Counted from the stretch's first letter, positions 10,025 to 59,151 are shown. The stretch: DNA of 64,000 bases from Patescibacteria group bacterium (GCA_028715115.1 JAQUSN010000001.1:3314-67313); one strand, 5' to 3'. Program-made: numbers and translations. Notes: generated by a model not told the origin, from the letters alone.

Positions 10025-10053
10025 TTGACAAAAGAGAGAAAATATGATAACAT
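10025..10053 (+). promoter_or_regulatory. sigma70-like promoter TTGACA-17-TAACAT of GC-rich cassette 1
   Basis: TTGACA at 10025-10030, TAACAT at 10048-10053. AAGGAGG at 10086-10092 precedes the GTG start. Confidence 0.4.
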
Positions 10054-10098
10054 ATGGGTACTTAGCACAAAGGGCACTAATGCCCAAGGAGGTTCTAC

Positions 10099-10797
10099 GT
10101 GAAAGTTCGCAATCTCTGGCACCTGACATGGATCGTGCCTGTGACCGTAACGGCTGTGATTGGGCTCGGGACAGCAATCAAGCCCATCACCCACGGCATC
10201 AAGCAGGCGTACGCCAAAATGGGCCGAGTGGCCGGCGATTTCGCCGACAACACAGCCTGTGCAGCTATAAACCAGCTCAATGACGACACGCTCGACGCGA
10301 AGCGGCTGTCCAGGCGGCAACTACTCGACTCCCTCTACTACCTAAGAATGCGGGTCCAGGAACAGGAGTATGAGCTGACAGACCTGTACAACCAGCTCAA
10401 CACCAACCTGTACTACCAGACCGGCATCTTCCGGGTCGAGGCGGCGGAAATACAAAACGTCCAAATCAACGGCCTCTACGAAGAAGCCGATGGCCTGATC
10501 AACAGACTGATCCATACCTGTTACCTCGGTCGAAACGTCATGTCCGACTACCTGACAGCACCCAAGGGCGCCCAGGCAGACACCAAAGTCATGCTTGAGC
10601 ATGCGTTTTACCAGGTCATTCGACCTGCGTCGCGACGCATCATCCAGTACCTGCAGATCAAGCACTACAGGGACGGATGGACCAACAACCTGGGAATCGG
10701 ATGGCCGGAACTGAACGGGGAAGATCTGCGATGCCTTAACTGGGCAGTCGCGGTCAACCTAGACCAGCCAACAACCTGGCTCTACAGCGAACCGTAA
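10099..10797 (+). CDS. hypothetical secreted/membrane-anchored protein encoded in a high-GC island (GTG start)
   Basis: 232 aa. Strong GC3 codon bias (about 55-58% GC against a 38% background). AAGGAGG RBS 6 nt upstream. N-terminal hydrophobic segment. Confidence 0.6.
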   Translation: MKVRNLWHLTWIVPVTVTAVIGLGTAIKPITHGIKQAYAKMGRVAGDFADNTACAAINQLNDDTLDAKRLSRRQLLDSLYYLRMRVQEQEYELTDLYNQLNTNLYYQTGIFRVEAAEIQNVQINGLYEEADGLINRLIHTCYLGRNVMSDYLTAPKGAQADTKVMLEHAFYQVIRPASRRIIQYLQIKHYRDGWTNNLGIGWPELNGEDLRCLNWAVAVNLDQPTTWLYSEP

Positions 10798-10808
10798 CCG
10801 TTCCGAAA

Positions 10809-10850
10809 AAGGCCGGGCCCCGCAAGGAGCCCGGCCTTGACTTTTATCTA
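10809..10850 (+). terminator. intrinsic terminator with a GNRA-capped GC stem (AAGGCCGGGCCCCGCAAGGAGCCCGGCCTT) and a T tract
   Basis: 10-bp GC stem followed by GACTTTTATC. Overlaps the -35 box of the next promoter. Confidence 0.6.
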
Positions 10851-10864
10851 AAATATGCTATTAT
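10837..10864 (+). promoter_or_regulatory. sigma70-like promoter TTGACT-16-TATTAT, near-identical to the promoter at 32551
   Basis: ttgacttttatctaaaatatgctattat versus ttgacttttaaccaaaatatgctataat at 32551-32578. Confidence 0.45.
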
Positions 10865-10941
10865 ATAAAAGCAATCGTAGAAATACGAAGGCAAGAACGT
10901 CGCTGGACACAAGTCTAGCGGCACAAACTAAGGAGACAAGA

Positions 10942-11397
10942 ATGAAGACGCTTATTCCCTTAACGATAGTTATCCTGCTGCTCGGCTTCGGGGGCTGCAC
11001 CAAAACTGGCGCAATTCCCGAGGACAATCTGGTAGCAACCAGCATAACGGCCCCGCACGATTCCCTGGATGAACTCTCAACATCAGCGAAACAGCTGATA
11101 CGGGACGTCAAGGACGCCATAACAGACAATGACAACCCGCGCGACTTCTGGTTCTGGACGATCGGCAGGTCGTTGGCCAAGATGGCTGTGGCACTGCAAC
11201 GTGCCCCGACCGAACGACAGACGTTCTATCTGCCTATCCTGAAGAAGGAACTCGAAGTCTACAACCAGAAGTTCTGCCCTTGTGCCCGTTCCTACCGAGA
11301 AGACCAGGCAGTCCTGACCTGGGTAAAGCAATTCCAGGCGGAAGACTCGACTACCTGGACACCACCCGAAGTGCTCCTGCGCGGAGCACTCGAATAA
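10942..11397 (+). CDS. hypothetical lipoprotein (high-GC island)
   Basis: 151 aa. MKTLIPLTIVILLLGFGGC is a lipobox-like signal. AAGGAG RBS at 10930-10935. A 5' UTR hairpin CGCTGGAC-ACAA-GTCTAGCG precedes it. Confidence 0.6.
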   Translation: MKTLIPLTIVILLLGFGGCTKTGAIPEDNLVATSITAPHDSLDELSTSAKQLIRDVKDAITDNDNPRDFWFWTIGRSLAKMAVALQRAPTERQTFYLPILKKELEVYNQKFCPCARSYREDQAVLTWVKQFQAEDSTTWTPPEVLLRGALE

Positions 11398-11410
11398 CCT
11401 CCGCTGGAAC

Positions 11411-11450
11411 CAAAACCGGCCGCCTTCGGGCAGCCGGTTTTCCTTTTGCG
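11411..11450 (+). terminator. intrinsic terminator AAAACCGGCCGCC-TTCG-GGCAGCCGGTTTT plus CCTTTTG
   Basis: GC stem with a UUCG-type loop and flanking A/T tracts. Confidence 0.6.
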
Positions 11451-14312: not shown

Positions 14313-15713
14313 TTAAATAAAACTAATCATTAAAACTTGATAAAAAATTCCTAAAGGATGAAATAAAAATGGGCCGGTTAAATTAGCCACCATTAAAGAA
14401 ACAAAACCAACCGCTAAGCCGACGGAAAGATCTCGGGAAAAACGTGAAGCACCTTTAAGATAAGAAAAAATTAATTTGCCCGAAAAAGCCAGATAAACCA
14501 TTAGGCCCAACAAACCAAGCTCCAGCCACATCTCTAACCATCCCCAATCAGGATTCGAAGTTTTCGTGATTAAATTATTAAGCGGATTTAAAAAACTGAC
14601 CATAGAGCCCAGGCCAGGGCCAAAAATTGGATTCTGCTTTATTTGAAACAATAAATTGGGCAGAATTCTCAATCGCGTCAAAGAGCTTAATTCTTCTTCT
14701 GGTTGAGTAATAGTCCCCAAGCGTCCAGACAGAAACGTCAAACCAGCCAGCTTCCCGGTAGTTAGAAAATAAATCAAATTAAATTCTACTACAAAAACCA
14801 ATAAAATCAAGATGAAAGCTATTAACCAACGACGCCAAGATAAATTGAGCTTTAAAAGCATAAGTCCAGCTAAGATGCCTAAAAAATAACCGCGCGAAAA
14901 ATTAATCATTAAACTCAAACTAATGGCCACGGCTAAAATAATAAGATTCTTTCGTTCTCCACGGGAAACATTTCGGCCCAAGACAAGACTTAAAAGAACT
15001 AGAAGCAACGGCAACATCCATAAATGAGCCGGAAAAACAATGCGATAAAATCCGCTTCCCAAGTCAGTCACCTTGCCCACGGCTATTTGCCTCAACCACC
15101 AATAATAATTATCATGAACTTGGCTTAGGCCAGCTGAATAAATAAATAAGTTAGCCAAGGTAAGGATGCTTACGCCGATTACAGCCACGGCCAAAATTCT
15201 CGTCAGCCACGGCCAATAACTTTCTTTTCTAAAAAATTCGCTGAGCGGAAAAACTAACAAGAAAAAACCATAAGCCATGGCGTCTTGAATCACCAAAAGA
15301 GACTCATGGTTATTCCAAAATCCTCGCCCCACAGCCAGTAGAACCATTAGGGCTAAAACTAGCCAATAAACAGAAATAGATTGTTGAAAAAAAAGTATTT
15401 TTTCTTGCTTCACTATCTTTCTTGTTAACCAACCAATCAACAAAATTATCATCAAGGCTGAACGCAAAGAAATGTTTTGCCATTCGAGAAAATGCCCAGC
15501 CTGACCAAATAATAATTCTCCCAAAAATAATAAAATGGCGAAATCAAATCGCCAAATAACCAAACAGATCATTAAAAATACCAGCAACCAAAAGAAAACA
15601 ACCTGAACAATAAGGACATGAAAGCCTAAAAATGAAATTAAATTAAAAGCAAAAAAAATGGCCAAGCACAGCCAAAATCTTCGGTCAAACAAATTAGTAA
15701 CGGCGAGAGACAT
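14313..15713 (-). CDS. polytopic membrane protein, O-antigen ligase/Wzy-like polymerase family
   Basis: 466 aa with more than 10 predicted TM helices. Embedded in a glycosyltransferase cluster. Confidence 0.6.
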   Translation of the reverse strand: MSLAVTNLFDRRFWLCLAIFFAFNLISFLGFHVLIVQVVFFWLLVFLMICLVIWRFDFAILLFLGELLFGQAGHFLEWQNISLRSALMIILLIGWLTRKIVKQEKILFFQQSISVYWLVLALMVLLAVGRGFWNNHESLLVIQDAMAYGFFLLVFPLSEFFRKESYWPWLTRILAVAVIGVSILTLANLFIYSAGLSQVHDNYYWWLRQIAVGKVTDLGSGFYRIVFPAHLWMLPLLLVLLSLVLGRNVSRGERKNLIILAVAISLSLMINFSRGYFLGILAGLMLLKLNLSWRRWLIAFILILLVFVVEFNLIYFLTTGKLAGLTFLSGRLGTITQPEEELSSLTRLRILPNLLFQIKQNPIFGPGLGSMVSFLNPLNNLITKTSNPDWGWLEMWLELGLLGLMVYLAFSGKLIFSYLKGASRFSRDLSVGLAVGFVSLMVANLTGPFLFHPLGIFYQVLMISFI

Positions 15714-16581
15714 AATAATTCTTTAGCCAAGGATAAAACAATTGAACAAAAAACGACATTAATAAGCTTAGTGGCGTTAAGCAGGCTAGAAATATCGCCT
15801 GCCAAAACGGATGGTGCTTACGAAAATAATAAATCAAACTGCGATTATAAATTTTTTGTTTTTTTAAAGGTGAAATTTTGAAAAAACTTTGATGCCCTAA
15901 ATGCTTCACTTTTATTTCCGGATCATAAACAACCTGATAATTTAATTTTTTAGCTCGATAGCACAAATCAACTTCTTCAAACCACAAAAAGAATTTTTCG
16001 TCAAAACCATGCAATTTTTCCATTAACTCCCGCTTGATTAAAAGGCACGCTCCCATCACCTGATCCACGGCTTGTTGTTTTTGATAGTCAAAATCGGACA
16101 AAAAATATTTTTTAAAAACTTTAGTGCGCGGAAAAAGATTGTGTAGTTTCAATAAAATTAAGGCCTGTGAGAAAACGTCGGGAAAACTCCGTACCGAGGC
16201 CTGGGTTTCTTTTTCTTCGTCGATAATCTGTCCGCCCAAAATGCCAGCTGATGAATCTTTTTTAAGATGATCGATAGCAATATCTAATGAATTTAATAAA
16301 ATTTCGGTGTCAGGATTAAGGAAAAGTATTATTTCGCCTTTTGATTTTTTAAACCCCTGATTGCAGGCTCTGGCAAAACCAAGGTTTTGATTATTAAAAA
16401 TAATCTTAAGATTATCGAATTTTTTACTAATACTTTCTAAAAAATCCTGACTGCCATCGCGTGAATTATTATCAATAATAATAACTTCATATGGCATTGA
16501 CGGCTGGTTTTGCCAGATAGAATTCAAGCATCGCTCCAATAGCGATCTGACGTTCCAGTTAACAATGATAATAGACAGCAT
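15694..16581 (-). CDS. family 2 glycosyltransferase
   Basis: MLSIIIVNWNVRSLL...IIIDNNSRDGS. Confidence 0.8.
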   Translation of the reverse strand: MLSIIIVNWNVRSLLERCLNSIWQNQPSMPYEVIIIDNNSRDGSQDFLESISKKFDNLKIIFNNQNLGFARACNQGFKKSKGEIILFLNPDTEILLNSLDIAIDHLKKDSSAGILGGQIIDEEKETQASVRSFPDVFSQALILLKLHNLFPRTKVFKKYFLSDFDYQKQQAVDQVMGACLLIKRELMEKLHGFDEKFFLWFEEVDLCYRAKKLNYQVVYDPEIKVKHLGHQSFFKISPLKKQKIYNRSLIYYFRKHHPFWQAIFLACLTPLSLLMSFFVQLFYPWLKNYYVSRRY

Positions 16582-16620
16582 ATGGTAATATTATTGATAT
16601 ATCTGATATTTTATCATTTC

Positions 16621-16648
16621 TTGACAAAATGTCAAAAAATATTATAAT
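16621..16648 (+). promoter_or_regulatory. consensus sigma70 promoter TTGACA-16-TATAAT of GC-rich cassette 2
   Basis: ttgacaaaatgtcaaaaaatattataat. GGAGGTG RBS at 16668-16674. Confidence 0.5.
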
Positions 16649-16677
16649 TAAATCAAGCAACCTGTTTGGAGGTGTTG

Positions 16678-16914
16678 ATGACTAGAGAGCAAAGTGATTG
16701 GCTCGTAATAGGAATAGGGTTTGTACTTACCTACACGCTCTCCCTGTTCTTGCCCTACACGCCATTCTTCGTCCACGCCATCAAGATGTTCATCGTCAAC
16801 TTACTGTGGTGGGGAGTCGTCATGGGGCTGGCCGCTTCAGAAGGTCGACGCTTCGACGAAGAAACGAAGCAACGAGCCATACGACTGAGCATAACAAACG
16901 CCGGTCGCGCCTAA
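16678..16914 (+). CDS. small two-TM membrane protein (78 aa) encoded by high-GC DNA
   Basis: MTREQSDWLVIGIGFVLTYTLSLFLPYTPFFVHAIKMFIVNLLWWGVVMGLAAS... GC3-rich codons. The ORF track starts earlier at a TTG. Confidence 0.55.
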   Translation: MTREQSDWLVIGIGFVLTYTLSLFLPYTPFFVHAIKMFIVNLLWWGVVMGLAASEGRRFDEETKQRAIRLSITNAGRA

Positions 16915-16935
16915 GCGCGACCGGCTTCTATTTAT
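16892..16935 (+). terminator. intrinsic terminator CCGGTCGCGC-CTAA-GCGCGACCGG plus T-rich tail
   Basis: 10-bp GC stem that contains the stop codon in its loop, followed by CTTCTATTTATATT. Confidence 0.6.
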
Positions 16936-22200: not shown

Positions 22201-25047
22201 CCAGCTATTCACGCCTAACATGGAAACGCCTTTATCTGAACGAACTCCATCGCCGGGTTGACCGTCTAATTTTTTACCGGTAACCATTATGCGATACCAT
22301 CTATTGGCTTCTAAGAGCGGATTGGTTAAACAGGGATTAATCGTAAAACCAGTCTTAGTAACCAGATCATTAATGGTTAATGTGGCAGGCACAGAGGTTC
22401 CGTTGGCACAATTATTATCGTCGCAAATTTCAAACTTTATATTATTCCAATTTAAGCTCGCTTCATCCATTTTTTGATTGAAAACCGCGACTAAAGCCGC
22501 ATTACGGCAAACTCCTATTTGGTTGTCATCTGGATTTTTTGACTCAATAATTGGCTGAGCATGACAACATTTATTTGTATCTAAAATGCCACAACCCATG
22601 CCGGTGCCACACTGCTCGTCTGTTTGACAGCCGCAACAAAGCCCTCGGCTACCGCCCGTACAAGGCGACTGATTGGCCATACATTGCAAACTGCCGGGAC
22701 AAGTATTTTGTTCGGTCGGGTTACAGCAACATCGGCAATCGGTATTGTTAACTCGACAAGTATAAGTCGGTTCGCCTTGGCATCGAGTTGATCCATTCGG
22801 ACAAACGTTTCCATCCGAACACACCTCGCCCGGACCGGGTAATTGTTCTAAAACCGTAAATGGCAAAGCATTGCTATTGCCGTTATTATTACTAACATAA
22901 ACGTCTCCTGTTCCCGCTAAGCTAGGCACTTTAAAATTATTTATTTTCGTATCACTCCAATTACAACCAGTACCAGGGCAGTTGCTCACCGCCGCTTCAT
23001 TATAAAATTTAACCGCATCCTTTTCGCCACCGCCATTGCCCAAACGAATACCATTTAATTCAATATTGGTTTTATCTCGATAGCCAGAACTGGGGTTAAT
23101 TACCCACAAGCACGGACCCTGGGCTGAACCGGATCGATCGATTGTGTAAGTCACGTCACTATTACTAGTTTCTTCTTCGCCGCTCGAACTATAAACGATC
23201 GTCAATCTTACCTTAGCTGCCACTGGCAAGTCTTCGCCGGTATCGGGTACAGTAGTGGTTAAATAATTATCACTGACATATTCTACTGGCGAATTAACTA
23301 CTGAGGGCCCGATTAAAAAACTGATTTGATTATTTTTGGGCGCAGCCGAATGGCTGGGCGTGCCGGTAAAACATTCTCCGAAAACGGTTATGCATTGACC
23401 ACTTGGGCCTTGAGCTGGACTCACGCGATTAATCCACGGCGCACACAAACAATTAGCCGCCGTAGTTGTTTTAAATGACCAAGTTTTTCCTAAGGTATCA
23501 CCCTTTTGATTTATAACCAGATCGCTTGTCATCTCGATTTGATAAGTTAGGTTGGGCGTCAAATCAACGCGCGGGTTTATGATAAAAACTTTAGTCTGGA
23601 GATCAGGGATCGTTAAATCGGCATATTGGTTACTGATAACTACCGGCCCTTTAATGTTTGGATTTTTATTAATCTCAAAAATCAAATTGTCGCCCTGCTT
23701 TACCCTAAAGAGGACTAAATTATTTTCCATCGAAGTGCCAAAAGTCAGACCAATATTGGTGCTGGAGCAAACTTTTTCGCCGGTTGGATAATATGAAGAG
23801 ATTCCCGGAGCATGATCGTTGGTCTGAAACTCCCATTCTACATTATCCGGATCCATGATATTGGAGCACAAATCTTTAATACCGGAAACATGAATGCGAT
23901 ACCAAGTAAATGGTTTTAACTGAACCGTATCGCGCAAATATATTTTAAAACCGGTGTCTTCTATGTCTACCAGCCAATCGGTCGCCGGAATTTGCTCAAC
24001 CACTAAACCGCCGCGGCCATCTAGGCGTGAGACCCAGATATTTGCAGCGATTGGATTATTATTACTATCCATTACCGTCGTAGCGTCAACTGGTTCGGAA
24101 AAATTAACGTCAATAAGCGGCGTTAAATCAACATTACGATCAGGATAGTTGGGGTCGTTCTGTTTTGAAATCGGATAACTACTGGTAATGTATGGTTTGG
24201 ACGTATCAGTGTGAATCCCGGTAGTAAAGCGCCAAGTAAAATCAGTGTCTGTTTCCGTACAGCCATTGCTGGCTTCACATTTTTTCAATGTCTTACCGCC
24301 ATTATCGCCAATTTGTTTTGGCAAATGCACGGTATAATCTGTCTCTGAAGCGAAGAGCGAATCGTGCTTAAAGACCAAGGCATTGCCTAAGACCTGCCAA
24401 GTGCCGGTAAATGTACCGCCGCTTTCTACTTTTAATAAATTATCCTGAACTAATTGTTGGATGTTGTCCGGCTTAACGCGATGATTAAAAATCGGCTGAA
24501 CGGCTGAACACAAATAAACGCTTTGATGATAGTTTTGCGGTGGACCTTCATGGGTAGTTAAAATTCTGCTTACCTTAAAATCATCTGGCAAGATTCCCGG
24601 ACCGCCAGGTTCTCCGCCATTACCAGCAATACCACTAATTATTTGACTAATGGCATTGATAATAAAAGAGGCAAAAGCATAAGCTAGAATAATAATAAGT
24701 AAACCAATAATACCAGCGGCCATTAATTTTTTAGCTCGAGTAATCTTTTCTTCGTTACCGCCCGAAGTCATCCAAATAAATCCGCCATAAACGACGATAA
24801 CCACGGCGATTAATCCCAAGAATCCCAAAATAAAACGAACTATACGGCCGATAATAATAGGCAATGGCGTAGATGGTAGTTCGGTAGTATTAGAAAACTG
24901 TTCCAGTCCTTCGTTCATCGGCGGCTGAGCATGAGCAACAGAAAATTGGCCGACTAAAATCAATAAAATAAAAAAGAGAAACGCTAGAGAAAAGAGTTTC
25001 TTAGTTCTTGCGCTAAAAAATAACTCTCCAAACTTTAGGTTTCTCAT
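19240..25047 (-). CDS. giant (1935 aa) surface protein: N-terminal signal plus double-TM pilin-like anchor, Big_2-type Ig-like domains, and internal and C-terminal Cys-rich modules
   Basis: Single uninterrupted ORF. Cys-rich stretch CRVNNTDCRCCCNPTEQNTCPGSLQCMANQSPCTGGSRGLCCGCQTDEQCGTGMGCG. Big_2-like ATVSPTG...ITAATSG. Probable adhesin. Confidence 0.8.
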   Translation of the reverse strand: MRNLKFGELFFSARTKKLFSLAFLFFILLILVGQFSVAHAQPPMNEGLEQFSNTTELPSTPLPIIIGRIVRFILGFLGLIAVVIVVYGGFIWMTSGGNEEKITRAKKLMAAGIIGLLIIILAYAFASFIINAISQIISGIAGNGGEPGGPGILPDDFKVSRILTTHEGPPQNYHQSVYLCSAVQPIFNHRVKPDNIQQLVQDNLLKVESGGTFTGTWQVLGNALVFKHDSLFASETDYTVHLPKQIGDNGGKTLKKCEASNGCTETDTDFTWRFTTGIHTDTSKPYITSSYPISKQNDPNYPDRNVDLTPLIDVNFSEPVDATTVMDSNNNPIAANIWVSRLDGRGGLVVEQIPATDWLVDIEDTGFKIYLRDTVQLKPFTWYRIHVSGIKDLCSNIMDPDNVEWEFQTNDHAPGISSYYPTGEKVCSSTNIGLTFGTSMENNLVLFRVKQGDNLIFEINKNPNIKGPVVISNQYADLTIPDLQTKVFIINPRVDLTPNLTYQIEMTSDLVINQKGDTLGKTWSFKTTTAANCLCAPWINRVSPAQGPSGQCITVFGECFTGTPSHSAAPKNNQISFLIGPSVVNSPVEYVSDNYLTTTVPDTGEDLPVAAKVRLTIVYSSSGEEETSNSDVTYTIDRSGSAQGPCLWVINPSSGYRDKTNIELNGIRLGNGGGEKDAVKFYNEAAVSNCPGTGCNWSDTKINNFKVPSLAGTGDVYVSNNNGNSNALPFTVLEQLPGPGEVCSDGNVCPNGSTRCQGEPTYTCRVNNTDCRCCCNPTEQNTCPGSLQCMANQSPCTGGSRGLCCGCQTDEQCGTGMGCGILDTNKCCHAQPIIESKNPDDNQIGVCRNAALVAVFNQKMDEASLNWNNIKFEICDDNNCANGTSVPATLTINDLVTKTGFTINPCLTNPLLEANRWYRIMVTGKKLDGQPGDGVRSDKGVSMLGVNSWVFQTGDELCQIDRIDVNPANKMVKVGAQQRYTANAYDDQQPVCVASFDWDSSAPVVATVEPIAGLETTASALSQGQTNISASTWIEIPGKLGQRRKITGLGVLTVKLTDLAVEEDSTCEPPSQIYSTPNPRPNYQQACLNIKVGARFNKNVDDGRINGTNLIKVYNCGSDQTCSHPTEVGAKDVYVYPVTLEKEAFVFEPTQNLSADTYYEVIVPGGEAGVIGEDGSSMAQDYVWQFKTKNDSVCPVESVAVLPIRTQLLNINDTQKFDSEALGEACQMLTGSYTWQWSSGDTKIATVSPTGPNNSTTATAKGLGETNITAATSGKSNQAYLVVSPAPTIISSSRFPAPNSTNICRNAFVLFTFDQEMDLNTINTSMATTTTVTLWGKNQDQGSPTSSLWNLFKNLVLKLRDNLINVSQAAPQGPPKSEWTQIAGEVKSQVISIGGIDSDSQQKQTLVRFVPSSALDSQRLYEIRIVGGPNGVKSKYGVSMAQDQSWQFTTGNKICQIQRVQITPQSYIFSQARKGHDFFATAYARDNQPISPITGVYTWTWAWTVKDNLITVTGDQDNPSRGAAVAGSTNGDTVLTAEAVDSLNQSFTNSAAVRVFICENPWVYPRPNDTNFYNFQLNYCRDGSPLLPALPDPVNAAKADSELKVSWLFNVPNTSDVIGLRIYDNFDHLTPAEWYKVKINSQSNPSAAPSVDDYQAIKDGRTTYVGATNVDFGLIGGGQPKLYSNIFLLSYNDNASQETIKIVNDLIKYWTFNINVRGDKMSLVHDLSRLVNFNQLNQLLSQYRAANNDFPKLISGIYVPGMTTSRWSSWQDTLGDSLGSALPIDPINTFANRNNCSGQKPYSCCADCPVNDPQCQGRCYNSAPDKLKYECVAGSHVYQYMYKFFQGNKGYALYSNFEYREPNNWQHNCASYNQTSTCSKHNWCAWINGSCKAKDLNFTGNACSSPSSCSCFNMQYLETYYYQQEWGQQQQESQK

Positions 25048-32550: not shown

Positions 32551-32578
32551 TTGACTTTTAACCAAAATATGCTATAAT
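32551..32578 (+). promoter_or_regulatory. consensus-like promoter TTGACT-16-TATAAT of GC-rich cassette 3
   Basis: ttgacttttaaccaaaatatgctataat. AAGGAGG at 32593-32599. Confidence 0.5.
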
Positions 32579-32603
32579 TTAAAAACAAACTAAGGAGGAA
32601 ATC

Positions 32604-32966
32604 ATGCTGATTGTGATTGTGATCTGGGCCGTCCTGATGCTGGCCTATCCCGTCCTTCCCGTTGTTCTTTCGGGAATCTTACCGCCCCTGGTCTTTCTGA
32701 TCCTGTCCCTGATCTCAAACGAGGACTCTGTGTTCTCGACTCTGTGGACGGTCTTCATCATCTGCGGTATAGTCGGCGCCATCCTGAGCATCTTCTTCGT
32801 CCCGCAAGAGATCTTTTCGGCCAAAGACCCTGTGGTGCTGTATTTCCGGTTCACGAGGATGTGTGGCCTAATCGCCGCCTACGCAGTCACGATTGTCGTG
32901 GCTATTGTGAAAGTCATCAACTTAATCGAGACAAGGGCAAGAGCAAGGGCCGCAACAACCGTCTGA
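32604..32966 (+). CDS. small polytopic membrane protein (120 aa) encoded by high-GC DNA
   Basis: MLIVIVIWAVLMLAYPVLPVVLSGILPPLVFLILSLI... GC3-rich. About 4 TM helices. Confidence 0.55.
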   Translation: MLIVIVIWAVLMLAYPVLPVVLSGILPPLVFLILSLISNEDSVFSTLWTVFIICGIVGAILSIFFVPQEIFSAKDPVVLYFRFTRMCGLIAAYAVTIVVAIVKVINLIETRARARAATTV

Positions 32967-32974
32967 TCAGCAAC

Positions 32975-33012
32975 TGGGGCGCTCGCACATCGCGGGCGCC
33001 TCTGACCGTTTT
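32975..33012 (+). terminator. GC-rich hairpin (GGGCGCTCGCACATCGCGGGCGCC) plus T tract
   Basis: Follows the stop of the 32604 ORF. Followed by TCTGACCGTTTTAG. Confidence 0.45.
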
Positions 33013-35264: not shown

Positions 35265-35276
35265 TTAATTTTTTTC

Positions 35277-35332
35277 TGGAGCCGAGGGTGAGGATCGAAC
35301 TCACGACCTATGGTTTACGATACCGTTGCCCC
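35277..35332 (-). pseudogene. 3' remnant of a tRNA-Thr-like gene (D-stem 3' side through CCA, anticodon CGU)
   Basis: rc = GGGGCAACGGTATCGTAAACCATAGGTCGTGAGTTCGATCCTCACCCTCGGCTCCA. Its acceptor 3' strand CCTCGGC matches the isolated 5' fragment GCCGAGGTAGCTC at 35625-35637. Confidence 0.5.
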
Positions 35333-35347
35333 GCCTGCCATCGCCCT

Positions 35348-35420: not shown

Positions 35421-35444
35421 TCAGGCTATGGCGGGCAGGTCTAC

Positions 35445-35528
35445 CCTACTTCGAGCTTATTAATTAAGCTCGAACGGGCCGTCCAGTTTTTTTCAAAAAC
35501 TGGAATAGGCCAATTGAGCTATCTGGGC
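35445..35528. repeat. conserved double-hairpin repeat (TTCGAGCTTA-N-TAAGCTCGAA, CGGGCCGT, CCAGTTTTT-N3-AAAAACTGG, AATAGG) fused to a 19-nt tRNA 5' fragment (GCCCAGATAGCTCAATTGG on the minus strand)
   Basis: About 80% identical to 41280-41358. The hairpin core is also at 40671-40690. Confidence 0.7.
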
Positions 35529-35624
35529 AAAAGTGGCGGGGCAAGGCTGCCCCGACGTTTTAGTCGGTCCGATGACTCCGACGAGTATCGGACTCCGTCG
35601 GAGGACTCCGACTGTAACGTCGGA

Positions 35625-35637
35625 GAGCTACCTCGGC
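35625..35637 (-). pseudogene. isolated tRNA 5' fragment GCCGAGGTAGCTC (identical to nt 1-13 of tRNA-Thr(UGU) at 40605-40617, plus 2 nt of its upstream flank)
   Basis: rc of gagctacctcggc. Followed on the minus strand by hairpin-rich sequence homologous to 40690-40760. Confidence 0.5.
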
Positions 35638-35820
35638 ATTAACACTCAGTCAGCCTATTAATATAATACACTAGGCTGAAAATTTTTCAATTGGAGCGGG
35701 TAACGGCCTGCCTGCCCTGACTGCCGTCAGGCGGGCGGTAGGCAGGGAATTGAATCTTTACTTGGGAAGTCCTAAAAGTTTTTGCAATCCGCCAAATTGC
35801 GGAGAAGTAGTGAATTTTTG

Positions 35821-47553: not shown

Positions 47554-50406
47554 TTATATAAACAATATTATTTCTGCTCCATCAATATCGGCTTCTTTAG
47601 AAAACTTCGCTTCTTTGGGTTGGCCAAGAATAAAATTATTGCTTAATGTTTCGGTTTTAATCTTATCAGAAAAATTATCGATAACGCCTCTTAAGCCTTC
47701 GTCGCCGGTGCCATAATATAAATCGATTTTATCTTTAATGGTCAATTTAGCTTCCTTGCGGAACGAATTTATTTGACGAACCAACTCACGCACCTGTCCC
47801 TCGGCTTTTAATTCAGGAGTAATGATCGTATTAAGAGCAACTCTGTCTTCGGCGCTCACCCAGCCGTCGCCGCTCGATAATTTTTCGACAATCGTCGTCT
47901 CTTTAACGTTTAATTCTTCTCTGATGATTCCCAGAAGTTCTACCGGAACCTGACATGATTTGGCAATTTCTAAACGGCCAAGCGGTTGGCGGACTTTAAC
48001 GCCACTCGAAGCTCGCAAACTGTGAGCCAAAGCGCAGATATCAACGACTGCCTTCATCTGGCTAAGTAATTTCTCGTCAATTAGAGATTTATCGGCTATC
48101 GGCCAATCGGATAAATGAACCGAATCGGCTTTATTGGTTAGTTGCTGATAAATTTCATCGCTGATAAACGGCGTAAATGGCGCTAATAATTTAGCTATGC
48201 CTAATAAAACATAACCTAAAACCTGGCTTTCGTTAGGATTTTTTTTGAAACGATCGCGTGAACGGCGAATATACCATTGCGACAATTCGGTGATAAAAGC
48301 TTCGATGTCGCGGCCGGCAGTCGTTATATCATACTTATCTAATCTTTCGGTAACGTTTTTGACCAAAAAATTATATTTTGCCAAAAGCCATTTATCTAAA
48401 ACATTTGATGATTTATTTGCTTCAATATTAGACGGCAAAGAATGACCGGTTAATTTATAAAACTCCAAGCAATTCCAAAGTGTCAGAAGCATGCGTTGCA
48501 CGACTTTTTTCACACCTTCAGTATCAAACAGTTTGCTTTCGCCAGGCTGATTGACGGTATACAAATACCAACGCAGGGCATCAACGCCGTATTCGTTGAT
48601 CACGCTCATCGGCGCGATGACATTACCCACGTGCTTGGACATCTTCTGTCCCTTTTTATCTAAAATATGACCCAAACAGATCGCGTTTTTATAGCAAGCG
48701 CCTTGATCTAAGAGCGTCGAAATACCGAGCAAAGTATAAAACCAGCCACGCGTCTGATCAATGGCCTCGGAAATATATTCAGCCGGATAGTTTATGCCTT
48801 TATCGATTCTCTCTTTATTCTCAAAAGGATAATGCCACTGGGCAAAGGGCATGGCGCCGGAATCAAACCAACAATCCATCACTTCGGCTACGCGGGTCAT
48901 TTTTTTGCCACACCCAGGGCAGTTCCAGGTGTAATCATCAATATATGGTTTATGCGGATCAAAAGGCTCAGGTAATTGTTTACCGGCTTTCTCTGATAAT
49001 TCTTTATAAGAGCCTAAACATTCTCTGTGTTGGCAGCCCTTACATTCCCAGATCGGAATCGGTGTACCCCAATAACGTTCACGCGAGATCGCCCAGTCTT
49101 TAATGCCGCTTAACCATTCACCGAAACGTCCTTCTTTGATGTGGGCCGGCACCCAATTTATTTCCTTGGCATTATCCAATAATTGTTTTTGCAGTTCGGT
49201 CATTCTGATAAACCAGGATTTTCTCGAATAATATAAAAGCGGTGAATCGCAGCGCCAGCAAAAAGGATAATCGTGCGCGTATAATTCCGTACCAAAAAGA
49301 ATGCCTCGTTTTTTCAAATCTTCCATAATGTCCGCATCAGCATCTTTGGCAAATTTCCCCTTGCCCGGCACATCAACTACCAGCTTGCCCTCCAAATCAA
49401 GTGTCAGCATTTCCGGAATTGGCAGTTTATCTTGAATAAATAATTGATAATCTTCTTCGCCGTAATGAGGCGCGATATGAACCATGCCCGTGCCGTCTTT
49501 AATAGAAACGAAATCAGCCGCGTAAACTTTAAAATAAGTTGGATCATCGTAAATCTTGTACATCGGTTCATAGCGCCAGCCAATTATCTTATCGCCCTTA
49601 AATTCTTCGACAATTTCATAGCCATGCGCGCCCAAAACTTTATCTACTAAATTTTTAGCTAAAATATAAAAATCTTGGCCTGACTTAGCTTTGACATATT
49701 CTATTCGTTCACCGGCGGCTACGGCCAAATTTGACGGTAAAGTCCAGGGCGTAGTCGTCCAAACTAATAAATAGGTATTTTCCTGACCGACAACTTTTAA
49801 TTTCAAATAAACTGATTGCTCTTTGACGTTTTTATAACCCTGGGCCACTTCATGCGAAGACAAGGCCGTGCCACAACGCGGACAATATGGCACCACTTTA
49901 TAGGCTTGATAAATCAAACCCTTGTCCCAAACTTGTTTAAAAATCCACCATAGAGTTTCAATATATTCTTTCTCATATGTGATGTAGGGATGTTCGAGGT
50001 CCAACCAGAAACCGATGCGCCGAGTCATATCTTCCCACTCTTTTTTATATTTCCAAACGTTTTCCTTACATTTTTCATTGAATTTGGCCACGCCGTATTT
50101 CTCAATGTCCGGCTTGCCGGAAACGCCGATTTGTTTTTCAACTTCAAGCTCAACCGGCAATCCTTGCGTATCCCAACCAGCCTTACGTTCAACAAAATAT
50201 CCCTGCATGGTCTTATAGCGCAAAATGATATCTTTAAAAATTCGGGCTAAAACATGATGAATGCCGGGCAGACCGTTGGCGGTCGGCGGACCTTCAAAAA
50301 ACACAAAATTGCCCTTGGGCGATTTTTTCGCCAAAGATTTGGCAAAAGTTTTGTCCTTATCCCAAAAAGCCAGGATCTTTTCTTCAATTTTAGAAAAATT
50401 TATCAT
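47554..50406 (-). CDS. ileS: isoleucine--tRNA ligase
   Basis: HIGH-like PGIHHVLARI, KMSKHVGN, IleRS signature WTTTPWTLPSN. 950 aa. Confidence 0.9.
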   Translation of the reverse strand: MINFSKIEEKILAFWDKDKTFAKSLAKKSPKGNFVFFEGPPTANGLPGIHHVLARIFKDIILRYKTMQGYFVERKAGWDTQGLPVELEVEKQIGVSGKPDIEKYGVAKFNEKCKENVWKYKKEWEDMTRRIGFWLDLEHPYITYEKEYIETLWWIFKQVWDKGLIYQAYKVVPYCPRCGTALSSHEVAQGYKNVKEQSVYLKLKVVGQENTYLLVWTTTPWTLPSNLAVAAGERIEYVKAKSGQDFYILAKNLVDKVLGAHGYEIVEEFKGDKIIGWRYEPMYKIYDDPTYFKVYAADFVSIKDGTGMVHIAPHYGEEDYQLFIQDKLPIPEMLTLDLEGKLVVDVPGKGKFAKDADADIMEDLKKRGILFGTELYAHDYPFCWRCDSPLLYYSRKSWFIRMTELQKQLLDNAKEINWVPAHIKEGRFGEWLSGIKDWAISRERYWGTPIPIWECKGCQHRECLGSYKELSEKAGKQLPEPFDPHKPYIDDYTWNCPGCGKKMTRVAEVMDCWFDSGAMPFAQWHYPFENKERIDKGINYPAEYISEAIDQTRGWFYTLLGISTLLDQGACYKNAICLGHILDKKGQKMSKHVGNVIAPMSVINEYGVDALRWYLYTVNQPGESKLFDTEGVKKVVQRMLLTLWNCLEFYKLTGHSLPSNIEANKSSNVLDKWLLAKYNFLVKNVTERLDKYDITTAGRDIEAFITELSQWYIRRSRDRFKKNPNESQVLGYVLLGIAKLLAPFTPFISDEIYQQLTNKADSVHLSDWPIADKSLIDEKLLSQMKAVVDICALAHSLRASSGVKVRQPLGRLEIAKSCQVPVELLGIIREELNVKETTIVEKLSSGDGWVSAEDRVALNTIITPELKAEGQVRELVRQINSFRKEAKLTIKDKIDLYYGTGDEGLRGVIDNFSDKIKTETLSNNFILGQPKEAKFSKEADIDGAEIILFI

Positions 50407-50469
50407 ACCAAATTTGTCGAAATCAAGGTTGGTTAATAGAAAAATAATACCACAAAATTAATCGTTGTC

Positions 50470-50502
50470 AACAAAAAACGCCTAAATCAGGCGTTAATCG
50501 GA
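50470..50502 (-). terminator. hairpin AACGCCTGATTTAGGCGTT followed by TTTTTGTT on the minus strand (terminator or ileS-leader attenuator)
   Basis: Lies between the GT1 gene end and the ileS start. Confidence 0.35.
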
Positions 50503-50537: not shown

Positions 50538-50566
50538 TTGACATTTTCTTAAAAACGTGCTATAGT
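50538..50566 (+). promoter_or_regulatory. promoter TTGACA-17-TATAGT of GC-rich cassette 4
   Basis: cttgacattttcttaaaaacgtgctatagt. AAGGAGG at 50583-50589. Confidence 0.45.
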
Positions 50567-50594
50567 ATAATTACCAATTAATAAGGAGGCTCCG

Positions 50595-50765
50595 GTGAGC
50601 GATTTCTTGAAGATATTGATCGGCTTAGTAATGCTGATCGGAGGCGGACTACTGAGCTATACGGCGTTCTGCCCCATCGTCCTGTGCATTGCCGGAGCAG
50701 GCGCCATCATAGCGCTTTGGTCCGCTTATGTCATGGCTTGCCGGTCTTGTCACATAGCAGGCTGA
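50595..50765 (+). CDS. small (56 aa) Cys-containing hydrophobic protein, GTG start, high GC. Absent from the ORF track.
   Basis: VSDFLKILIGLVMLIGGGLLSYTAFCPIVLCIAGAGAIIALWSAYVMACRSCHIAG. GC3-rich. Perfect SD spacing. Confidence 0.5.
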   Translation: MSDFLKILIGLVMLIGGGLLSYTAFCPIVLCIAGAGAIIALWSAYVMACRSCHIAG

Positions 50766-50795
50766 CTTCGGTCAGCCTGCTTCTGCTTTTATTTA
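50756..50795 (+). terminator. intrinsic terminator GCAGGCTGAC-TTCG-GTCAGCCTGC plus TTCTGCTTTTATTT
   Basis: 10-bp perfect stem with a UUCG loop that overlaps the stop codon. Confidence 0.65.
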
Positions 50796-51985
50796 ATTTT
50801 TTCTTTTATTTTTAATATTATTTCGTCAACCTTGCTTTGCCAAGAATTTTCTCGGGCCGCTTCGATTCGCAGTCTTTCCCGTTCAGCGTCATTTTCGGCC
50901 AGAGCTTTTTCTATATTTTGCTGAAAACCGGCATAATCCTGGGCAAAATAAATCAAATGTGAAAATTTGCCCAAGGCCGGCATCGGCGTACTGACTACCG
51001 GCTTACCACAAGCCAGATAGTCATAAAGTTTCATCGGGTTCATCGACATAACAAACTCATTGACTTGATGGGGAATAATGGCTACATCAAATTGATGAAT
51101 ATAATTTGGCGCCGCATCATAACCCTTACGGCCCAAAAAATAAACGTTTTTATACTTTTTTAATTGGCGAATTTCTGAGGGCGCCTTTCTGAAGGAACGG
51201 AAAAATTGCGGCCAAATCGGCCCAACTAAAACCAGGGATTTGTCCGGATTTTTTTCGGCCACATATTCTAATAAATTAAAATCTAAACGATCTTGAATAA
51301 TGCCCAAATATCCGATAATCGGATGTTTTATTTTTTTCATATCAAACGGCACTTTATCGGCGCCGATAAAGTGCGACGCATCAACGCCGTTAGGCAGCCA
51401 ATAAATGTCCTTGTTCCGCCCCAGCTGCCGAAACAAATCAACCAACGAATTGGCAACGGTAAAAATTAAATCGGCCTTTTGGCTGATAATTTGATAATTT
51501 CTTTTTAAAATTTCTTGATATTTAATATAAGAGGGGTGGGCCAACCAATTATCCACGGCCTCAAAAACATTTAAATCCTCGTTTAACCGACCAAAATATT
51601 CAATAAACATCGGGAAATAGGAAATCACCACTCGCTTCATTTGTTTTGGTCCGTCGTTTAATTTTTCTAAAATAGAATTTAATTTTTTTATTACCAATTT
51701 TTTTGAAAAAAAAGAATCAATGGTGGAAAAAACTATTAATTTTTCATTAATTTGCCTAACTCGCGTGGTCGGATCGCTATAAATCAACTCTTGCTGGGGA
51801 GCGCCGATAATATTTTCTATCCAATTTCGAATCGCTCGATGAAATGTAAAAGGCAAAAAATCAACAACTACAATTCTTTTAATTTCGGGGCTGGCCAATA
51901 ATGAATTTAAAATATGAAAATTACGATTATTGGTGCCGCGCTGCCACTCTGAATACGAAGACATGTTAAACATTATCAGCTCCAT
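50789..51985 (-). CDS. family 1 (GT4-like) glycosyltransferase
   Basis: C-terminal GT-B motif region (KLYDYLACGKPVVSTP). Confidence 0.8.
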   Translation of the reverse strand: MELIMFNMSSYSEWQRGTNNRNFHILNSLLASPEIKRIVVVDFLPFTFHRAIRNWIENIIGAPQQELIYSDPTTRVRQINEKLIVFSTIDSFFSKKLVIKKLNSILEKLNDGPKQMKRVVISYFPMFIEYFGRLNEDLNVFEAVDNWLAHPSYIKYQEILKRNYQIISQKADLIFTVANSLVDLFRQLGRNKDIYWLPNGVDASHFIGADKVPFDMKKIKHPIIGYLGIIQDRLDFNLLEYVAEKNPDKSLVLVGPIWPQFFRSFRKAPSEIRQLKKYKNVYFLGRKGYDAAPNYIHQFDVAIIPHQVNEFVMSMNPMKLYDYLACGKPVVSTPMPALGKFSHLIYFAQDYAGFQQNIEKALAENDAERERLRIEAARENSWQSKVDEIILKIKEKIK

Positions 51986-58227: not shown

Positions 58228-59151
58228 TTAGATTATCTCCACCTCTTCTTTTATTTTAATTTTAAATTTTTTAAAAACCGCTAATTTGGCCAGCTTAATC
58301 ATCCTCAAAACATCCCTAGCCTTGCCTTGACCTAAATTTACTATGAAATTGGCATGCTTGGGACTAATCTGGATTTGCCCGATTTTTTTACCCTTAAGAC
58401 CAGATTTATCTATTAGCCAAGCCGCGGGAATGAGACCAGTTTTAGTGATATTAACAAGCTCTGGATATTTTTTAAGTAAGGGCTGATGTTTTCTCGAAAA
58501 GGTAATATTTTTAAAAATACAACCGGCGCTGGGCTCGCAAGGCTGGCCAGATCTTTTGAATAAAATTTCGTGAATTTGTTTTTTGATTAAATTCTTATCG
58601 CCCCCTTTAAGCTCTATCTCTACCTCTAAAACAATAAGCAAACGATTTTGTTTAAAAATACTATCTCGATAAGAAAACCTGCACTCTTTATTGGAAAAAT
58701 TTTTTTTCGCTAATTTAGGATCAATAATTAAAACTCTTTTTACCACGTCGGCCATCGAACCGCCAAAAGCGCCAGCATTACCGCGAATCGCTCCGCCCAC
58801 CGTGCCCGGGATCCCGGCCGCCCACTCTAAACCGCTTAATCCGTTTTTAGCCGCCAAGCTTACTAATTGCGCCAAAGGCATATTAGCGCCAACTGATAAT
58901 TTTTTGCCCGATATTTTATTTTCGTTTAATTTAATCTTAATTACCAAGCCGTTAAATCCTTTATCAGGAACCAATAAATTGCTTCCACCGCCCAAAATAA
59001 AATGTTTTAATTTGTTTTTCTTGGCCCATTTAAGGGCGTTAATCAGTTCATTGGCTGATTTTGCCAGAAAAAAATATTTGGCCGGTCCGCCAATTTTAAA
59101 AGTAGTATAATGTTTTAAATCGACGTTTTGATTAATCTTTAGATTGGCCAT
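58228..59151 (-). CDS. murB: UDP-N-acetylenolpyruvoylglucosamine reductase
   Basis: FAD-binding N-terminus FKIGGPAKYF...ILGGGSNLLV. Confidence 0.85.
   Translation of the reverse strand: MANLKINQNVDLKHYTTFKIGGPAKYFFLAKSANELINALKWAKKNKLKHFILGGGSNLLVPDKGFNGLVIKIKLNENKISGKKLSVGANMPLAQLVSLAAKNGLSGLEWAAGIPGTVGGAIRGNAGAFGGSMADVVKRVLIIDPKLAKKNFSNKECRFSYRDSIFKQNRLLIVLEVEIELKGGDKNLIKKQIHEILFKRSGQPCEPSAGCIFKNITFSRKHQPLLKKYPELVNITKTGLIPAAWLIDKSGLKGKKIGQIQISPKHANFIVNLGQGKARDVLRMIKLAKLAVFKKFKIKIKEEVEII

Follow-up and report, generated by a model that had tools for sequence, protein, structure and literature searches.

Organization of the cassette between ileS and the GT1 gene

The stretch of DNA analysed here, 64,000 nt of a Patescibacteria group bacterium (GCA_028715115.1, JAQUSN010000001.1, positions 3314-67313; hereafter the window), carries a short GC-rich unit, designated cassette E, in the spacer between ileS and a GT1-family gene. 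Both neighbours lie on the minus strand and the cassette on the plus strand. Within it, a predicted promoter, a Shine-Dalgarno (SD) sequence, a GTG-initiated open reading frame (ORF) of 56 codons and a predicted intrinsic terminator follow one another (positions are counted from the first letter of the window):

50538-50566, plus strand: predicted promoter, sigma-70-type consensus match
50583-50589, plus strand: SD sequence AAGGAGG, read from the sequence, 5 nt before the GTG
50595-50765, plus strand: coding sequence (CDS) for 56 aa, with GTG at 50595 and TGA at 50763-50765
50756-50795, plus strand: predicted intrinsic terminator, a UUCG-loop hairpin (50756-50781) followed by the T-tract TCTGCTTTTATTT

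The promoter is composed of TTGACA (-35, 50538-50543) and TATAGT (-10, 50561-50566) separated by a 17-nt spacer, inside which an extended -10 TG is found (50558-50559). It matches the consensus at 11 of 12 positions and was the joint best site in an 11-kb scan. Only about 20 promoter-like sites of comparable strength were listed for the two strands of the 64-kb window, and five of them belong to the cassettes described below. In its design the promoter is the same as that of the host ileS gene, and, judging from its position, the transcript would begin at about 50573. The terminator hairpin, AGCAGGCTGAC-TTCG-GTCAGCCTGCT (11 bp, including 7 G-C pairs), is the first-listed terminator of the scanned region. 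The TGA stop of the ORF sits in the 5' arm of its stem. The GT1 gene converges on the cassette, and its final codons and stop (50789-50791) extend into the T-tract. The terminator scan reported no minus-strand terminator-like site at this hairpin, because no U-run follows on that strand.

The GC content is 0.52-0.58 within the ORF, versus 0.32-0.33 in both flanks and 0.395 in the whole window. The original prediction had described a GC-rich, self-contained promoter-SD-ORF-terminator unit for a Cys-containing hydrophobic peptide, wedged between ileS and an opposite-strand GT1 gene, and each of these elements was found in its place. It had also stated that the ORF was missing from the ORF track, which is indeed the case, since a product of 56 aa falls below the 60-aa listing threshold; a look-up of the exact sequence in a public gene collection likewise gave no gene call for the ORF.

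Coding capacity of the 56-codon ORF

The cassette was compared with dinucleotide shuffles, 20,000 of which were used for the hydropathy and antisense-promoter tests. A frame without a stop over 56 codons was retained in 10.6% of shuffles; the length of the open frame is, by itself, weak evidence for coding. The three-base periodicity of the ORF is significant (chi2 = 20.3, p = 0.0024), with codon positions 1, 2 and 3 rich in G, T and C, respectively, i.e. the RNY/T2 pattern of membrane-protein genes. The grand average of hydropathy (GRAVY) of the peptide (1.56) was attained by none of the 20,000 shuffles. A codon model trained solely on the four sister cassettes (see below) gave the annotated frame a log-likelihood ratio of +3.8 bits and the remaining five frames -12 to -45 bits; in leave-one-out controls with the sister cassettes, the true frame alone scored positive.

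The mRNA folds better than its shuffles (z = -3.9, or -2.0 when the terminator hairpin is left out), and the opposite strand of the unit does so as well (z = -3.5). Such near-equal folding of both strands points to GC-rich DNA with a palindromic terminator rather than to a strand-specific RNA structure. A scan of Rfam 15 (E ≤ 10) returned nothing at gathering score, the best sub-threshold match overlapping the transcribed unit having E = 1.4, and assignment of the unit to a known non-coding RNA family was rejected.

These data bear directly on the possibility that the ORF makes no functional protein, the unit being a small structured RNA made from a strong promoter, or else a transcription unit, young or in decay, whose ORF is incidental; it would persist solely because the lineage tolerates insertions in this spacer. 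In support of this one may cite the lack of a homologue in the collections searched and of any call by gene callers, the identity of all known copies of the locus (so that purifying selection is undemonstrated), the roughly 11% of shuffles that keep the frame open, a transcript more structured than shuffles, and the visibly decayed cassette held by the same slot in a related locus (L014; see below). Nevertheless, a perfect SD sequence stands 5 nt before the first start and the ORF ends at the terminator, as in the four sister cassettes; the periodicity, the extreme hydrophobicity and the frame-specific codon usage all indicate coding; and the case for an RNA gene is countered by the blank Rfam result at gathering score and by the similar folding of the two strands. 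We therefore regard a non-functional ORF as an improbable explanation. Protein coding is favoured over non-coding RNA, in agreement with the original prediction: the 56-aa ORF is most likely translated and cassette E is very probably a real small gene, a verdict based on sequence statistics.

The predicted peptide

The deduced product is fMSDFLKILIGLVMLIGGGLLSYTAFCPIVLCIAGAGAIIALWSAYVMACRSCHIAG, in which the initial V (GTG) is read as fMet. Kyte-Doolittle values in 19-residue windows are 1.6-2.3 across residues 1-49, with peaks at residues 7-25 and 23-41, and residues 7-49 form a run of 43 consecutive apolar residues. Such a run is too long for a single span, which argues for a pair of helices joined by a tight turn near S21-P27. 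This arrangement is plausible, the boundary between the spans, placed by hydropathy only, being imprecise. A single-sequence AlphaFold2 model, built without an alignment, consists of one long helix (pLDDT 78); a model of this kind is uninformative, as it cannot tell the folds apart. Thus, of the two transmembrane (TM)-like segments claimed in the original prediction, the two hydropathy peaks are present but lie within one continuous hydrophobic stretch, which AlphaFold2 renders as one helix. The CxxxxC...CxxC arrangement noted at the same time does exist, as C26-x4-C31 and as C49-x2-C52 with H53 next to it, but it could not be linked to any family or function.

The only charged residues are D3, K6 and R50, to which H53 may be added. 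None of the Cys residues is preceded by a lipobox, and neither AxA nor another signal-peptidase site is seen in the peptide sequence; lipoprotein or signal-peptide processing was ruled out on these grounds. We propose that the 56-aa product would form a tight hairpin of two helices in the cytoplasmic membrane. K6 and R50/H53 would, under the positive-inside rule, give it an N-in/C-in topology, which would put C26 and C31 near the outer face, and C49, C52 and H53 at the inner face of the membrane. The small-residue motifs GGG (16-18) and AGAGA (33-37) would favour helix packing or oligomerisation.

The search space for homologues of the peptide comprised about 15 billion proteins in total, together with metagenome, viral, phage and plasmid collections. 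An exhaustive phmmer search of 1.84 billion representatives gave a single, spurious match: the tandem-repeat protein P0001, rejected as a homologue because it was matched in multiple stretches. Back-translated pattern scans of metagenome and viral contigs gave no match to the peptide, nor did tblastn against phage and plasmid records, and none was found in Pfam, NCBIfam (both to E ≤ 1), PHROGs, PADLOC or PDB sequences, the sole sub-threshold Pfam/NCBIfam match being DUF3938 at E = 0.28. By these searches the peptide is an orphan, to which no function can be assigned by homology.

The cysteines raise the question of a Cys-based function, i.e. a MerE/MerF-like thiol-pair carrier, a CXXCH heme peptide, or a double-glycine or disulfide bacteriocin precursor. 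Each predicted membrane face has one of the two Cys pairs near it, C49-R-S-C52-H53 conforms to CXXCH, and the GGG at residues 16-18 offers a putative cleavage site after GG. Against this, Pfam and NCBIfam were blank apart from the DUF3938 match and the PDB gave no match; the CXXCH motif is followed by just three residues and would lie on the cytoplasmic side; the presumed leader sequence is hydrophobic and not amphipathic; and the neighbours are ileS and the GT1 gene, with no adjacent mer, cytochrome-maturation, peptidase-ABC exporter or modification-enzyme gene. Even taken jointly, these functions are very unlikely.

Three known classes were tried and rejected. MerE, MerF and MerT are identified by family profiles and mer operon context; the peptide gave no Pfam match to them at E ≤ 1, and all it has in common with them is a two-TM shape with two Cys pairs. 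In c-type cytochromes the CXXCH motif lies outside the membrane, within a heme-binding domain and in the company of a maturation system. The CRSCH of the peptide (residues 49-53) is near the C-terminus and predicted to be cytoplasmic, and no cytochrome domain was matched. Holins combine one or more TM segments with a hydrophilic, highly charged C-terminal domain, and their genes lie beside that of an endolysin. The peptide lacks a charged tail, its gene has neither lysis nor phage genes in its vicinity, and it matched no holin of PHROGs or Pfam.

Five GC-rich cassettes of the window

Cassette E is the smallest of five units of the same kind, all on the plus strand:

10025-11450 (block shared with B), plus strand: cassette A, CDS 10099-10797, 232-aa signal-anchored protein
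10025-11450 (block shared with A), plus strand: cassette B, CDS 10942-11397, 151-aa lipoprotein with the lipobox LLGFGGC
16621-16930, plus strand: cassette C, CDS 16678-16914, 78-aa 2-TM protein
32551-33012, plus strand: cassette D, CDS 32604-32966, 120-aa 4-TM protein
50538-50795, plus strand: cassette E, CDS 50595-50765, 56-aa 2-TM peptide

The G+C content at third codon positions (GC3) of the five cassettes is 0.57-0.73 (0.63 for cassette E), compared with 0.37 ± 0.037 for the host genes (n = 50), and C occupies the third base in 36-44% of codons in all five, versus 20% in host genes. The codon usage of cassette E lies about 7 standard deviations from that of the host genes. A cassette-versus-host codon scan of every ORF of ≥30 aa in the window placed exactly these five at the top of the intergenic ORFs, besides an antisense shadow of cassette D, which bears out the original assignment of cassette E to a GC-rich set as its smallest member. 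Each cassette has a consensus promoter, a strong AAGGAGG-type SD sequence, a GC-rich terminator and an orientation against the flanking genes, and in all four sisters, too, the ORF that follows the strong SD sequence extends exactly to the terminator. By sequence, all five products are directed to the envelope (signal-anchored, lipoprotein, 2-, 4- and 2-TM proteins).

The five proteins are mutually unrelated in sequence. The sole similarity across cassettes is that of the promoters of B and D (30 of 34 positions identical), together with an identical 13-nt SD block. The terminator of cassette A overlaps the -35 of cassette B. The product of a sister cassette is labelled by NCBI as hypothetical protein PHV78_00055 [Patescibacteria group bacterium]. 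No homologue was found for cassette A, which is an orphan, and viral scans with cassettes A and D gave no match.

For cassette B, one homologue with 44% identity was detected (L036, 582-1136, ENA ERZ27248937 k141_784598; also L037, JGI Ga0268276_1036539). It resides on another Patescibacteria contig, of 40% GC and with different neighbours. Its C-terminus is nearly identical (YREDQAVL..DSTTW.PPEVLLRGALE), its promoter and 5' untranslated region (UTR) are homologous to those of B, and it has a terminator of its own. Its GC3 is 0.68, versus 0.38-0.41. In this pair, 35 of 67 conserved residues use different codons, which indicates that the high GC3 has outlasted substantial divergence. Such persistence is better explained by a distinct pool of GC-rich genes, or by selection for GC, than by a single recent accident. 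No donor was identified: the homologue of B is also found in a low-GC Patescibacteria contig, and A is an orphan.

Upstream of cassette C, at 16608-16648, two back-to-back promoters with a common palindromic -35 region (TTGACAaaaTGTCAA) were observed. The plus-strand promoter (12/12) drives cassette C and the minus-strand promoter (11/12) faces a GT2 gene (15694-16581); by their sequence, the two units could compete for RNA polymerase.

Copies and relatives of the locus

The surroundings of cassette E comprise the following features:

47554-50406, minus strand: ileS
50444-50471, minus strand: ileS promoter (TTGACAACGATTAATTTTGTGGTATTAT, running from 50471 to 50444), whose -35 adjoins the terminator listed next
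50477-50495, minus strand: predicted intrinsic terminator, AACGCCTG-ATT-CAGGCGTT followed by T6
50789-51985, minus strand: GT1-family gene (Pfam Glyco_trans_1_4, E = 7.6e-9)

The GT1 gene ends a gene string that leads from ribosomal-protein genes and rpoA through a flippase gene to GT1, next to the ribosomal-protein operon. The GC skew of the window has one sign almost throughout, and the majority of genes lie on the minus strand.

Copies of the locus were collected via the neighbouring genes. They were present in two NCBI metagenome-assembled genomes (MAGs) and in contigs of four Logan run assemblies, all 99.98-100% identical. The occurrence of an identical locus in MAGs and Logan assemblies shows that it is no assembly artefact, and the same near-identity leaves no variation for an estimate of frame conservation or of the ratio of nonsynonymous to synonymous substitution rates (dN/dS). 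The GT1-ileS junction is absent from the GTDB species representatives, whose GT1 proteins are 39-43% identical at most.

The nearest distinct relatives are four loci (L012-L015), with 62-63% identity in GT1 and 79% in IleS, in which the gene order rpoA-L17-L13-S9-flippase-GT1-ileS is kept. In two of them (L012 and L013) the spacer contains an unrelated, same-strand 165-aa orphan ORF (L012, 5230-5830; GC3 0.51) with its own TTGACA promoter, SD sequence (AAAGGAGG) and terminator; in L014 (1255-1400) it contains an internally deleted remnant of this unit, and in L015 (4340-4410) it is only about 70 nt long. The differing content of the GT1-ileS spacer identifies it as a slot that varies within the genus, and cassette E as an addition peculiar to this population. 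The ileS promoter (50444-50471 in the window, 5835-5862 in L012) is conserved in L012 and L014, and so is the layout in which a terminator directly precedes it. L012 and L014 also carry a structured leader with a CCCGCCACGGCGGG hairpin, and the window has no such leader.

Predicted antisense transcription and a possible toxin alternative

The first minus-strand terminator past the GT1 stop is the one at 50495-50477. Since GT1 lacks a terminator before this point, its read-through would run antisense to cassette E, over the whole unit including the promoter. Expression of the cassette would then be dampened by, and inversely coupled to, read-through of the GT1 unit. In addition, a promoter-like site was found on the minus strand within the ORF:

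50706-50734, minus strand: antisense promoter-like site (ATGACA, 17 nt, TATGAT; 10/12), tentatively included in the unit

An RNA initiated here would begin near 50699, extend for about 225 nt and be complementary to codons 1-35, the SD sequence and the 5' UTR.

This arrangement recalls type I toxin-antitoxin (TA) loci such as hok/sok, ldr/rdl, ibs/sib, tisB/istR, fst and txpA (Fozo et al. 2010, PMC2887945). Their toxins are hydrophobic TM proteins of fewer than 60-70 aa with a charged, polar or bulky C-terminal cluster, they show homology to a known family or occur in tandem or multiple copies, and the toxicity of their overproduction is relieved by the antisense RNA (PMC2887945). Applied to cassette E, the 56-aa peptide would be a membrane-damaging toxin, whose mRNA is neutralised by a cis-antisense RNA made from the internal minus-strand site and/or by GT1 read-through and ending at 50495-50477; pairing would span the SD sequence, the start codon and the first 35 codons, and a helix burying the GUG would provide a second layer of control.

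Several observations are consistent with such a module. An antisense site this good was obtained in 0.66% of the 20,000 dinucleotide shuffles of the unit (the comparison being post hoc), and cassette E alone has one (0/4 sister cassettes). The minus-strand terminator is suitably placed for an antisense RNA, and the peptide is shorter than 60 aa and very hydrophobic, as described for type I toxins (PMC2887945). The cassette mRNA is also more stably folded than its shuffles, with the z values given above. In the predicted fold, CCGGUGAGC, which holds the start codon, forms a 9-bp helix with GCUUGCCGG, close to the 3' end of the ORF, and the start codon has a calculated probability of 0.01 of being unpaired. 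Occlusion of the translation start is a hallmark of type I toxin mRNAs. In the case of cassette E, however, it falls short of significance: the start is buried to the same degree in 10.7% of shuffles, the SD sequence is paired no more than in shuffles, and start occlusion was rejected as evidence for a type I system. Moreover, the antisense stretch shows no unusual degree of structure (z = -0.5). The approximately 43 hydrophobic residues of the peptide do not resemble the usual single TM segment with a charged or aromatic C-terminal cluster; its last ten residues, MACRSCHIAG, include one Arg, one His and one Ser and form no such cluster. An all-against-all comparison showed cassette E to be present once, not in tandem, and to be dissimilar from the other cassettes, no known toxin family was matched in Pfam, NCBIfam or PADLOC, and the four sister cassettes of the same design (a lipoprotein and larger envelope proteins) are clearly no toxins. 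To sum up these features, cassette E encodes a small hydrophobic TM protein, but neither the C-terminal cluster nor homology or multiple copies were found. We consider a type I module unlikely.

Other GC-rich segments of the window

A GC-rich stretch (up to 0.59) of about 400 nt was observed between the genes for tRNA-Thr(CGT) and tRNA-Gly(CCC), at 35422-35820. Repeated GACTCCGAC motifs occur in this stretch, along with several hairpins; no convincing ORF is present, and it gave nothing better than E = 0.026 in Rfam. Beside tRNA-Thr (entry 35275-35346) there is a tRNA-Thr-like sequence with a T-arm, a CCA end and a look-alike of the CGT anticodon loop, which is called by neither ARAGORN nor Rfam. 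GC-rich patches (0.57-0.59 in 150-nt windows) were also seen in long minus-strand host genes, at 4633-4904, 8446-8658, 22551-22758 and 58704-58920; one of them lies in a 1020-aa helicase-like gene, around the low-complexity stretch GLPSGQAGRSQPKADEPRVHASGG. These intragenic patches may be in-frame insertions or low-complexity linkers.

Origin and proposed role of cassette E

Phage morons, of which HK97 gene 15 (Juhala/Hendrix) is an example, were reviewed by Cumby et al. (2012, PMC3594210). A moron is defined as extra DNA in comparison with related genomes, with deviant GC content, its own promoter and terminator, and residence in a phage; the archetypal product, HK97 gp15, prevents superinfection and is itself a small protein of the inner membrane (PMC3594210). 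Three of these four features are found in cassette E, i.e. extra DNA, deviant GC content and, by consensus, its own promoter and terminator. It does not reside in a phage, hence the term moron-like, and we do not file it as a moron.

On balance, we somewhat favour the view that cassette E is an independently transcribed, moron-like, horizontally acquired accessory gene of foreign composition for a small membrane protein. The cassette would have entered, in the opposite orientation, the variable spacer that separates GT1 from the ileS promoter. Its product would self-associate or bind a larger membrane partner (in exclusion, protection or modulation) rather than act as an enzyme, a role proposed from the analogy with HK97 gp15 and from the envelope cargo of the sister cassettes.

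A number of observations weigh against this view. A word-indexed search of 5.8 billion clusters found no homologue of the peptide, and no diverged copy of the ORF is present among the copies of the locus that were collected; the frequency of open frames among shuffles and the single helix of the AlphaFold2 model, both given above, are to be counted here as well. No shared terminal repeats, target duplications or insertion scars came to light when the five cassettes, flanks included, were all compared with one another. The flanks are housekeeping genes, and there was no match to a viral contig, phage record or PHROG. The promoter and the SD sequence are typical of the host, so that the word foreign strictly covers the coding part, and the high GC3 could reflect selection instead of transfer.

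A bolder version of the favoured reading would make cassette E the smallest of a class of unrecognised, mobile promoter-to-terminator "chromosomal morons" in Patescibacteria, encoding an antisense-controlled membrane peptide of the toxin or exclusion type. The members of this class would be GC-rich single-gene cassettes with C-ending codons, each for an orphan envelope protein. They would form a separate pool, exchanged or maintained among candidate phyla radiation (CPR) genomes of about 40% GC, insert into intergenic spacers with a preference for the antisense orientation relative to host operons, and retain a high GC3 over long divergence. This proposal is speculative, and we rate its chances as low.

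Taken alone, the 56-aa peptide is an ordinary, well-supported small-ORF annotation, and the five-cassette set is the more useful lead. If the annotation is true, it adds an unannotated small membrane protein to an ultra-small CPR genome. In such genomes each retained gene is presumed to matter, and the membrane and surface proteins of CPR bacteria are thought to mediate their episymbiotic lifestyle. The shared foreign codon signature, envelope cargo and antisense orientation of the five cassettes, one of which recurs elsewhere, suggest a distinct accessory gene pool of Patescibacteria, which would be a route of gene gain overlooked by standard annotation and homology searches.

Comparison with known systems

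Small membrane proteins that modulate larger partners form the AcrZ, MgrB, KdpF and CydX class. They are usually either conserved or co-transcribed together with the partner or its regulon, and in MgrB the cysteines are functionally important. The cassette E peptide resembles this class in its size, its membrane helix or helices, the ease with which such genes are overlooked by annotation and, possibly, the importance of its cysteines. It differs in being a compositionally foreign orphan, antisense to its neighbours, for which no partner can be proposed.

With type I TA loci, cassette E shares an intergenic position and a hydrophobic peptide of fewer than 60 aa; its mRNA is predicted to be strongly expressed and structured, and full antisense overlap is possible via the candidate promoter and the downstream terminator. 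In contrast to these loci, its peptide suggests two spans instead of one and has no charged or aromatic tail. Furthermore, cassette E is a single copy with a candidate antitoxin RNA only and no toxin homology.

As regards phage morons, the differences are mainly those of context. Cassette E lies between ileS and a glycosyltransferase gene, outside any phage or prophage, and at least five such units, each on the minority strand, are spread along these 64 kb of a Patescibacteria chromosome. The cassettes are GC-rich inside an AT-rich genome, and the peptide has no sequence similarity to known moron products. On the other hand, cassette E is extra DNA with a GC content unlike that of its neighbours and with its own predicted promoter and terminator; like HK97 gp15, its product is a small predicted inner-membrane protein, and the lipoprotein and envelope proteins encoded by the sister cassettes are typical moron cargo.

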